Part shown: positions 18,901-21,900 of the stretch, piece by piece | How positions within the stretch are numbered: the first letter of the stretch is position 1 | Layout of the letters: every line of letters starts with the position of its first letter | Source of the DNA: Lingula anatina | Taxonomy: Eukaryota; Animalia; Brachiopoda | Reading direction: 5' to 3' | Length of the DNA stretch: 64,000 nucleotides | Assembly (NCBI GenBank): GCA_051362555.1 | Contig: CM120642.1 | Coordinates: 25,792,001 to 25,856,000 of the forward strand | The notes under the pieces: generated by a model | Told to the model about the DNA's origin: nothing | Seen by the model: only the letters and a program-made list of their open reading frames with translations | Database searches by the model: none | Translations under genes and position numbers: made by a program

Positions 18901-21900
18901 AGCAGCTGCAAATTCAGGAAACACCTGCCAAAACAAACATACAGCATGCACCCTTACTATACACTGTGTTATCTACTACTGGGCTTGGGAGATTTCTTTA
19001 TCACCAAGTCTCTCCTCGTCAGCATTCAGATAGGGAAATATCCTAGTAGCTCCTCTGGCTCTATAGCAGGGTCACATGAAAAGCTGCAGGGAAGTTCTGA
19101 TCATTTCCTATCATCCCACCCCCAGAGACCCAGGCCTTTCTCAGCCACCACTGTCCAACACTACCACATGGAATACAGCCACAGGAAAGTGTACGAAACT
19201 TAACTGATCTTACTAAAGCACTGAAGCATGGCCAGTTGTTTCACTCCAGTAGTGGTGCACAGTGGTACTATGGGGACCCAGCTTGCAGGGAGCTCTACCA
19301 GCAGAAATATCCCACGAGAATAGTGTGCAATACTTCTGCCTTTCTCCCTGTCACGCTGGGTTTACTACCCTGGGACATCAATGGCCAAATGACCAGCCAT
19401 CACTACCTGATAGCCTCCTTGTAGTGCATAAGGGCCTCGTGGAGCTTGCCTTGTTGTTGTAAAACACTGGCCAAATTGGAGTGAGCTACTGCAAATTCAG
19501 GGTACACCTGAAACACGCAGGAGCAGGGGGAAAACATTCAGAGGTTGTTCAAGGTAAACAACATGTCCTGAAATCAAGTCATCTCATCTCACAAGCAAGA
19601 AGAAAAAAGTATCTTTCTTTTTAATTGTAAAATCAGAGAGACAGTTCAAGTAAAGGGAAGTTCAGTTATGGTCCAACTATACCTGTTCCACCAAATGATA
19701 TCCAAAGGGTCCTGAAACTTTTCTACAAAAAGTGCACACGCAAAGATTGCCTTTAGTTTTCAATCTTTCTGTAGAATAATTGTTTTGGAAAATAATTTCA
19801 ATGTCACTTTATTCATCTATCAAAATTCAGATTTTCTATCTACAAACAAGGACCAATGTTTAAAATGGCAAATCCATCTGGAATCATACCTCCAAAGCCT
19901 TCAGGTAGAGCCTGACAGCTTCTTCAGTGTGTCCTTGCTCTCTTTTTATATTGGCTAGATTGTTTAATGAATCTGCATGGGTTGGACACAACTTCAGGGC
20001 AGTGTTGTAGCATTTCTCTGCTTCAGCAACCTGAAAAATGTTTATCATTAGTTTGCCTTCTTTGCAAAGAAATTTGCAAAACAAATAAATCCCAAGTTTA
20101 TCCACTTAATACATAGCTTACATTTTTGACAAACAAAGGCTTTGTTTTTTAACATCACCAAGATGTTAAGTGACATTACCAAAAACAAATATTATAATTT
20201 TTTTCCATGGGGTTTATGTTATATTACCTGCACTTTCTCTTTCAAAGCATTAGCCAAATTGCAGTATGCATCAGGGAAGTTTGGCTGCAGCTCAATTGCT
20301 CTTCTATATGTGTCAATAGCCAAGTCTATCAATCTTGAAAAAGAAACATCATGGCCTTGATTAAAACAAACTTAGCTCTAAGAATTAATCATACACTAAT
20401 TTTATCTGACTGCATGTTATTTCTTTAGACAAATTTTTGCAATAACATACTTTCTTTCAACATTTTAATCAAGTTCAAATCACCATTTACAAAACAGGAA
20501 CAGTTCTGCGCTTAGTTTTGACTTACCCCTGTTCATAGTAAACACAAGCCAAGTTCCCATGAACTATAGCATGGTTTGGACTTAGACTAAGGGCTCGCAG
20601 ATAAGCTGCAACAGCTCTGCAAAAGAGTGACACATTGCATCACATTCTGCATGTTAAATAAAGCAACCTCATGGGATTTAGAGGTTAAGTAGTAAATATA
20701 CAATTCTTAATAAAAGAGATTTCACAATTCTATGTATGCATCCAACCAACCTGAAAGTCGAGACCTAAATGCTATATATGAATGTTACAGCAATTTCTAT
20801 ATAGTCCACCTACCTGTCAAAGATCCTAGCTTCTTTTAAGACATTGCCTAAATTGATATACGCATCTAAGAAACTTGGGTCTAGAGCCACTGCCTAAATT
20901 GAAACAAAAAAAAAAATTATTTTTTAAAACATGTTTATAGTAGAAGCGCAAACATTACTATTTTAACATTAAAATGCTATTTTTCTTTTTAACATATTCA
21001 AATATGATGTCCTTTTGGTAACCAAGCCACAAAAACTATACTTACTTTTTCAAAGTGATGAATTGCCAGCCATATTTCTCCTTGTGCGTTAAACACACAT
21101 CCCAGATTACTCCAAGCTACAGCAAAGTTGGGTTGAGTCTCTATGGCTTTTAGATAACATGCCTGGTGTGGGTGGGTCCATATCCCAAAGGTTGGCACAG
21201 GGGGGTTCAGGTTACAACCATTCAGTTGGATCCAGTGTGGAGTGGAGGAAGTGAGAGGAGGTAGAAGTGACAGAGGGACAGACAGACAAAGAGAGAAAAA
21301 AGAAAAAAGAGAAAAAGAAGTATATTAGACATGGTAAAATTGCCAGTTTGTGACAGCGTCTGCGTGGTTGAGAGCGTACGCATGCGCGGGACGCAGCGCG
21401 GACTTGTATGTGAGACCAAAACAAACCATGCTCAGACGGTTAACTATTTCTAATACATACAATGAACTGATAATCAACAACAGCTACAATCTGTGAGACT
21501 TAGGTTTATTGTGCTCTCAACAGTCAATAATGCAGCAGTGTGGCAACCTCCCTCCCAACGCTGGTAGCAGCTCGCAGCGCACCACGCTCTTTGCAGAAAG
21601 GCAAAAATCCTGAATTCAAATCTTTTTTTCTTCAAACTTCATAAACATTTACTGATAAATACCATTTTGAGCCAGTCTCCCACTTATGCAATTTTATCCA
21701 AAAACATGTTGAATAATTTGGTTTTTCCCAAAAATAGATTTCAAATAAGAGAAATGTCCCAAACGGAGTGTTTTATGGTGCCAAACCTGTGTGAATTTCT
21801 GTCGAAACTTTGCGAGATATTTCTGCAGTGTTCACTTGGGTCGACTGACTGATAGTTCAAACCATAGGCATCTTGCATGTTAGGGCTACAAACCCCAATT

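Follow-up and report, generated by a model that had tools for sequence, protein, structure and literature searches.

Detention of intron 4 is the best-studied feedback on O-GlcNAc transferase (OGT), the single enzyme for nucleocytoplasmic O-GlcNAc. In vertebrates this detained intron carries an intronic splicing silencer (ISS) and a decoy exon (PMC5588854, PMC6097662, PMC7373989, PMC12017769), and the known input to its splicing is O-GlcNAc (PMC5588854). The available text of these papers traces the ISS through vertebrates as far as jawless fish and finds nothing resembling it in Drosophila (PMC5588854), or gives the range of the OGT element as fish to mammals (PMC7373989). We found no report of intron-4 retention or of a decoy in an invertebrate OGT in the literature searched, subscription papers lying outside it; intron retention is reported for Drosophila sxc with the intron unnamed in the available text (PMC11765297), and the OGT data cited in the available part of PMC13073974 are mammalian only. 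The OGT gene of the invertebrate Lingula anatina, contained in the 64-kb stretch of genomic DNA analysed here (the window), thus raises the question of whether its intron 4 is subject to a comparable splicing brake, and how old such a brake may be.

Architecture of Lingula OGT intron 4

OGT occupies about 25790-12995 on the minus strand of the window, with 23 exons, one duplicated pair among them, and 22 introns; over exon 18 it matches P0122, an NCBI Lingula anatina protein, at 99% identity, and other proteins at about 75% at best, which assigns the window to a brachiopod and hence a lophotrochozoan. The initial annotation had named intron 4, between LDEAK and ACYLK, as the longest OGT intron, and both the lengths (2500 nt, followed by 1360 and 1091 nt) and the 83 exon4-exon5 junction reads from 8 RNA runs that back its ends bear this out. 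The intron is in phase 0 and, when kept, introduces an in-frame stop at the third intron codon. The flanking peptides (LDEAK/LEEAK and ACYLK) are common to vertebrate, lamprey and cnidarian proteins, and we treat the intron position as orthologous, taking the vertebrate position from published papers. The relevant features are:

23663..23731, minus strand: OGT exon 4, 69 nt, ending in LDEAK (translation and junction reads)
23657..23665, minus strand: intron 4 donor, without A at +4 and without G at +5 (read by eye)
21163..23662, minus strand: OGT intron 4, 2500 nt, at 3-38% of exon depth in RNA
21361..21600, minus strand: CpG/GCGC-rich patch, a CpG peak upstream of the AG-free zone
21165..21359, minus strand: AG exclusion zone, 195 nt, ending at the acceptor
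21324..21329, minus strand: predicted distant branch point TCTAAT, the sole YTRAY motif in the zone
21235..21320, minus strand: polypyrimidine tract, 88% C/T
21163..21164, minus strand: acceptor AG with a T-poor proximal tract (sequence and junction reads)
21046..21162, minus strand: OGT exon 5, starting with ACYLK (translation and junction reads)

An AG exclusion zone of about 195 nt, a branch-like TCTAAT followed by a long pyrimidine tract and a poor tract at the acceptor itself had all been proposed beforehand, and each was recovered. The zone measures exactly 195 nt (the nearest AG upstream of it is at 21361-21360) and ranks first by length among the 7208 AG gaps counted over both window strands, ahead of gaps of 156 and 135 nt; the AG-free stretch at the other 21 OGT introns is 14-103 nt. 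Shuffles of the zone's own letters were AG-free in 639 of 100000 cases, and since its last 70 nt, which are of mixed composition, were by themselves AG-free in 1.2% of shuffles, the pyrimidine tract does not explain the zone. The putative branch A (21325) lies 163 nt from the intron 3' end, and T makes up 10% of the 20 nt that precede the acceptor triplet, the lowest value among the 22 OGT introns (35-80% in the others). The donor, which had been called weak, has neither A at +4 nor G at +5, but it is not unique in this, as +5 G is missing from 9 of the 22 OGT donors and both positions from 4 (judged by eye).

This acceptor fits the layout of distant-branch-point exons, a class with long AG exclusion zones that is enriched in alternative splicing (PMC1431707): the zone is 195 nt long (at least 100 nt in the class), branch motif and tract sit far upstream at its 5' end, and no AG intervenes up to the acceptor. 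The class, in the available text of PMC1431707, consists of human cassette or mutually exclusive exons, whereas the Lingula case concerns a constitutive coding exon behind a retained intron with a predicted branch. No lariat-type joints occurred among the joints of at least 3 reads in the 8 runs, positions 21272-21322 being masked. The acceptor region folds no better than its shuffles (z=0.30), and structure-based masking of the acceptor was rejected on this basis. A search against Rfam over 10000-31000 returned 7 matches at E<=5, every one below the gathering score, and the match inside intron 4 (22120-22197, E=4) was taken as chance. Upstream of OGT, a long near-perfect inverted repeat at 27564-27687 falls below the Rfam threshold for MIR7533 and appears MITE-like.

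The initial annotation had further pointed out that intron 4 supplies the mOGT N-terminus in mammals; an N-terminus of this kind is not supported in Lingula. Reading back from exon 5, its frame continues without a stop for about 54 codons of the intron-4 end, a likeness to human mOGT (PMC4901358), but the AG-free zone offers no in-frame start, none of its 3 Met codons being in frame with exon 5. The mOGT frame itself is absent from most mammals and, in the available text, limited to some primates, cow and goat (PMC4901358).

Retention of intron 4 and an internal stop cassette in RNA

We found nine RNA runs by species label through a query with the 3' end of the gene, not with intron 4, and mapped eight of them (X1-X8), placing 196-689 reads per run from samples of 6-26% of each run. 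Expressed as mean intron-4 depth over median exon depth, retention was 3, 6 and 3% in study P1 (X1-X3), 21, 8 and 38% in study P2 (X4-X6) and 18 and 31% in study P3 (X7, X8), two oligo-dT runs showing 18 and 31%. Intron 1 (1091 nt) stayed at 0-3% of exon depth in all 8 runs, the intron-2 bin had depth 0 in 4 of 4 runs examined, and intron 11 (18823-17464, minus strand), just past the duplicated exons, reached 2-12% in the 4 runs covering it, exceeding intron 4 in X1 (6%). Intron-4 reads were nearly all sense in the 6 stranded runs, which argues against DNA carry-over, and all intron-4 bins were read-covered in 5 of the 8 runs. Retention in this invertebrate thus singles out intron 4 and varies between samples. 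The retention that the initial annotation had predicted is supported by intron-4 coverage at 18-38% of exon depth in four of the eight runs and 8% in a fifth, with introns 1 and 2 near 0; in the three P1 runs intron 4, at 3-6%, barely stands out. As run conditions are coded, the variation between runs may reflect tissue, the share of nuclear RNA or the library, and not feedback.

Junction reads within P2 point the same way. Exon4-exon5 junctions numbered 16 in X4, 8 in X5 and 1 in X6 (Fisher p=3e-5 for X6 versus X4 and p=0.0035 versus X5), while the upstream junctions of X6 remained at 27 reads (exon 2-3) and 51 reads (exon 3-4), and its intron 3' boundary was crossed by 74 unspliced reads against 5 spliced joints. 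Even in low-retention runs, exon4-exon5 junctions were 0.3-0.6 of their neighbours; exon 4 is short, which probably depresses these counts, so the junction-based retention of 6-68% is an upper estimate. Depth ratios are probably a lower estimate, the intron being AT-rich and polymorphic. Two further signals were seen in the mapped reads: antisense reads (depth about 3) at 22351-22650 within intron 4 in X6, with a trace in X4, and loose-ended reads at 25061 in intron 1 in X1 and X2, which probably derive from a repeat transcribed elsewhere.

The reads also revealed an exon inside intron 4 that the initial annotation had not reported and that, of all features seen here, most closely matches the decoy exon of vertebrates:

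22028..22033, minus strand: predicted cassette branch motif ACTAAT, about 35 nt ahead of the cassette AG, with a T-rich tract after it
21911..21995, minus strand: cassette exon, 85 nt, frame-shifting (junction reads)

The cassette carries an in-frame TGA at 21926-21924 and is joined to exon 4 by 36 reads and to exon 5 by 16 reads, each kind of joint occurring in six of the eight runs. That joints into the cassette outnumber those out of it would make the distant-branch acceptor the slower step. Cassette use rises with retention over the 8 runs (rho 0.83, p=0.011). Three outcomes therefore coexist in RNA, namely exon 4 spliced to exon 5, intron kept and cassette included, and the OGT frame is open in the first only.

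The same intron in other animals

We scanned metagenomes for the acceptor followed by exon 5, a design that excludes spliced forms, and recovered at least 117 loci. Five were left out (L034, L068 and L080 as cassette-spliced, L057 and L010 with less than 40 nt of intron), and the remaining 112 together with Lingula formed 55 groups (54 metagenomic plus Lingula) among the matches listed. In these groups, among the matches listed, the intron-4 AG-free zone has a median of 99 nt compared to 32.5 nt for 88 other OGT introns, and reaches at least 80 nt in 36 of 55 groups versus 2 of 88 control introns, a comparison whose p-values overstate the difference because the groups are not phylogenetically independent. 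Also among the matches listed, 19 of the 55 groups have shorter zones, down to 11 nt, the intron-4 zone exceeds every other intron of its own group in 17 of 21 paired groups, and intron 4 spans 1.0-3.6 kb in the 24 loci with both ends. Length by itself does not go with long zones in the 22 control introns of at least 400 nt (15-54 nt only). A fish-like locus, L028, has a zone of at least 148 nt. Wider conservation had been proposed for this intron, and as far as the zone is concerned it is supported: many animals have a long stretch free of AG at this very intron.

Shared motifs were scored in the same sets. Among the matches listed, CTAAY occurs inside the zone in 32 of 55 groups versus 4 of 79 control acceptors (scored in the last 60 nt, so that window lengths are unequal), and at least two GCGC/CGCG are present in the last 350 nt in 36 of 50 intron-4 groups versus 3 of 47 control introns; ranked against every other 350-nt window within its intron, this GCGC patch comes first in just 12 of 25. 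A motif shaped on the cassette acceptor was found in 10 of 31 introns, compared to 1.3 in shuffles, 0 on the reverse strand and 0 of 79 among other acceptors; 6 of the 10 had themselves shaped the motif, leaving 4 of 25 against about 1 expected (p about 0.02). By blastn, Lingula intron 4 had no match at E<=1 to the other intron-4 sequences, and alignable blocks between groups were confined to apparent relatives plus one branch/tract match. With no alignable sequence between Lingula and other phyla, homology rests on position and layout. A guess that a 20-residue insert in a cuttlefish protein (P0137) corresponds to the Lingula CpG patch was dropped as unsupported, the longer motif occurring in Lingula alone.

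Twelve contigs, among the matches listed, are spliced across 12-14 intron positions yet retain intron-4 sequence. The whole intron is kept in L001, L053, L058 and L073, part of it in L050, L052, L056, L075 and L057 (23 nt only in L057), and stop-bearing inserts are found in L080, L068 and L034. The 74-nt insert of L080 equals an exon inside the intron of L039, 706 nt upstream of the acceptor; the gastropod-like L034 joins an internal acceptor to exon 4 and keeps the downstream part of the intron; and the hydrozoan L068 has a 230-nt insert, either a cassette or an alternative acceptor. These contigs end close to the coding region, and other introns are present in genomic sister loci (L075/L069, L052/L008 and L073/L079). 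Judged by protein similarity and a quick tree, L001, L053, L080 and L050 are pancrustacean, L058 is insect-like, L075 is Daphnia-like (90%), L034 is Elysia-like (91%) and L068 falls in a Clytia cluster (90%). In anthozoan-like loci, among them L041 and L012/L078, the zones measure 133-198 nt and a block resembling an internal acceptor is shared; L041 keeps 1.9 kb of intron 4 with two later positions spliced. By this placement, RNA-like contigs with intron-4 sequence or a stop cassette represent animals of crustacean-, insect-, mollusc- and cnidarian-like type; as fully spliced forms are excluded and no other intron served as a control pattern, the scan speaks to presence, not frequency. Annotated OGT isoforms in protein records (P0137, P0241, P0170, P0244, P0265 and others) from cuttlefish, barnacle, crabs, lamprey and fish carry additional residues or different N-termini immediately ahead of exon 5, as would fit gene models that incorporate cassettes or retained sequence of intron 4.

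Known systems, rival explanations and other features of the locus

Compared to vertebrate OGT, the Lingula intron shares the gene, the intron number, the flanking peptides and great length (human 3.3 kb), is retained in poly(A) RNA with its neighbours spliced, and contains an internal cassette that, like the vertebrate one, would trigger nonsense-mediated decay (NMD). The human decoy (143-153 nt) overlaps the silencer, its splice sites are needed for retention, and blocking it lowers retention from about 80% to 21%, the remainder being decoy-independent (PMC6097662, PMC7373989, PMC12017769). The Lingula cassette, in contrast, is 85 nt long with a single splice site on either side, and its inclusion is more frequent than that of the human decoy, which is rarely included. 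A distant branch point or an AG-free zone has no mention for vertebrate OGT in the available text of PMC5588854, PMC6097662, PMC7373989 and PMC12017769. The likeness is one of position and layout, the intron sequences compared being those of Lingula and the metagenomic loci. Unlike the human exons of PMC1431707, as presented in its available text, the distant-branch-point layout at OGT intron 4 recurs across phyla. The decoy-exon introns of SF3B1, ARGLU1 and SNRNP70 (PMC6097662, PMC7373989) resemble the Lingula intron in being large and retained, with an internal non-coding cassette and a partly retained downstream half, whereas the link between cassette and retention in Lingula is a correlation over 8 runs.

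What is new here is read-level proof of retention, a stop cassette and a long AG-free zone in an invertebrate OGT; O-GlcNAc sensing at this intron would follow by analogy. We assign a probability of roughly 0.65 to the reading that Lingula intron 4, with its sample-dependent retention and sometimes-included stop cassette, is the same post-transcriptional brake on OGT as in vertebrates, probably inherited from the cnidarian-bilaterian ancestor. Mechanistically, binding of U2 at a branch point 163 nt upstream, beside the long tract, would make the true acceptor slow, and scanning from there to the acceptor would need the AG-free stretch. The cassette, which has a predicted branch motif nearby, would compete for the weak exon-4 donor and may leave the downstream half of the intron stalled, in keeping with 36 cassette junctions on the upstream side versus 16 on the downstream side. 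NMD would then remove RNA that includes the cassette, and RNA that keeps the intron would be held in the nucleus, with high O-GlcNAc favouring retention if human cells are a guide (PMC5588854).

Regulation by tissue, stage or stress instead of O-GlcNAc, or repeated origin of similar layouts at an old intron, could also account for the retention and the poison cassette. Samples differ strongly, intron 4 is not alignable between phyla, and cassette sizes diverge (74, 85 and 230 nt, against 143-153 nt in human), all of which suits this alternative; we nevertheless regard it as unlikely, since the known vertebrate input is O-GlcNAc (PMC5588854) and one inheritance is simpler for a long intron with an internal stop cassette and a long AG-free zone from cnidarian-like to arthropod-like animals. 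That intron 4 is merely slow, being long and flanked by weak sites, with retention and a cryptic exon as unregulated by-products, is very improbable. Its rank as the longest OGT intron, the little retention in the P1 runs and the 2-12% seen for intron 11 would fit such a view, but X6 nearly lost the productive junction with exon 2-3 and 3-4 junctions unharmed, intron 1 stays near zero at 1091 nt, zones in the 22 long control introns are short, and the layout is kept across phyla.

Part of the signal could also stem from a transcript that starts near the tract and runs into exon 5, giving a short OGT, with the CpG-rich patch as internal promoter. Depth is indeed higher at 21184 than at 21359 in X4 (27 vs 15), X5 (9 vs 1), X6 (74 vs 16) and X8 (11 vs 4), and several contigs hold only 100-500 nt of the intron-4 end. 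X7, however, has no such step (14 vs 16), exon depth in X6 itself ranges over 18-64, reads span the entire intron in five runs, no pile-up of read starts was reported (21272-21322 masked), the zone lacks an in-frame Met and a promoter would need no AG-free zone, which together make an internal start highly unlikely as the source. As an observation in its own right, depth over 21163-21270 is 2-9x that at 21359 in X4, X5, X6 and X8, through coverage bias, 5'-truncated RNA or an internal start.

Returning to the inherited brake, a splicing brake on OGT is likely far older than vertebrates. We advance more tentatively, and at somewhat less than even odds, that an O-GlcNAc-sensing switch composed of a retained intron, a decoy cassette and a distant branch point behind a GCGC patch is older than the split between cnidarians and bilaterians and has persisted through its architecture, not through alignable sequence, in which case the distant branch point may be the decoy-independent retention left by antisense blocking in human cells. 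If true, a metabolite-tuned splicing switch would be as old as that split, with named cis-elements that are hidden from alignment (distant branch point, AG-free zone, GCGC patch and cassette acceptor), and simple invertebrates would offer models for the mode of action of decoy exons, still an open question (PMC12017769).

The duplicated exon pair of this gene is a tandem copy of a 101-nt TPR exon (10a at 19507-19407 and 10b at 18924-18824, minus strand), whose use is mostly mutually exclusive: joints into 10a/10b numbered 11/18 in X1, 8/26 in X4, 2/32 in X7 and 0/20 in X8, and 4 reads in X1 join both copies, shifting the frame. Tandem copies of the TPR exon are also present in L032 and L046, and the 10a type is found in protein P0259 but not in P0228 of the same cluster; the literature searched contained nothing clearly on a duplicated OGT TPR exon. 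The insect OGT isoforms P0183, P0191, P0217 and P0218 have in common a related alternative N-terminus, joined at the exon-7 position. Elsewhere in the window, repeated open frames at about 8260-10150 mark a tandem array whose repeat length is close to 146 nt. Several short exons whose repeats are thymosin-beta-like by their motif lie at about 42500-50400 on the plus strand, and a 343-codon open frame with a motif of carbohydrate-sulfotransferase-like character occupies 56281-57309 (plus strand).
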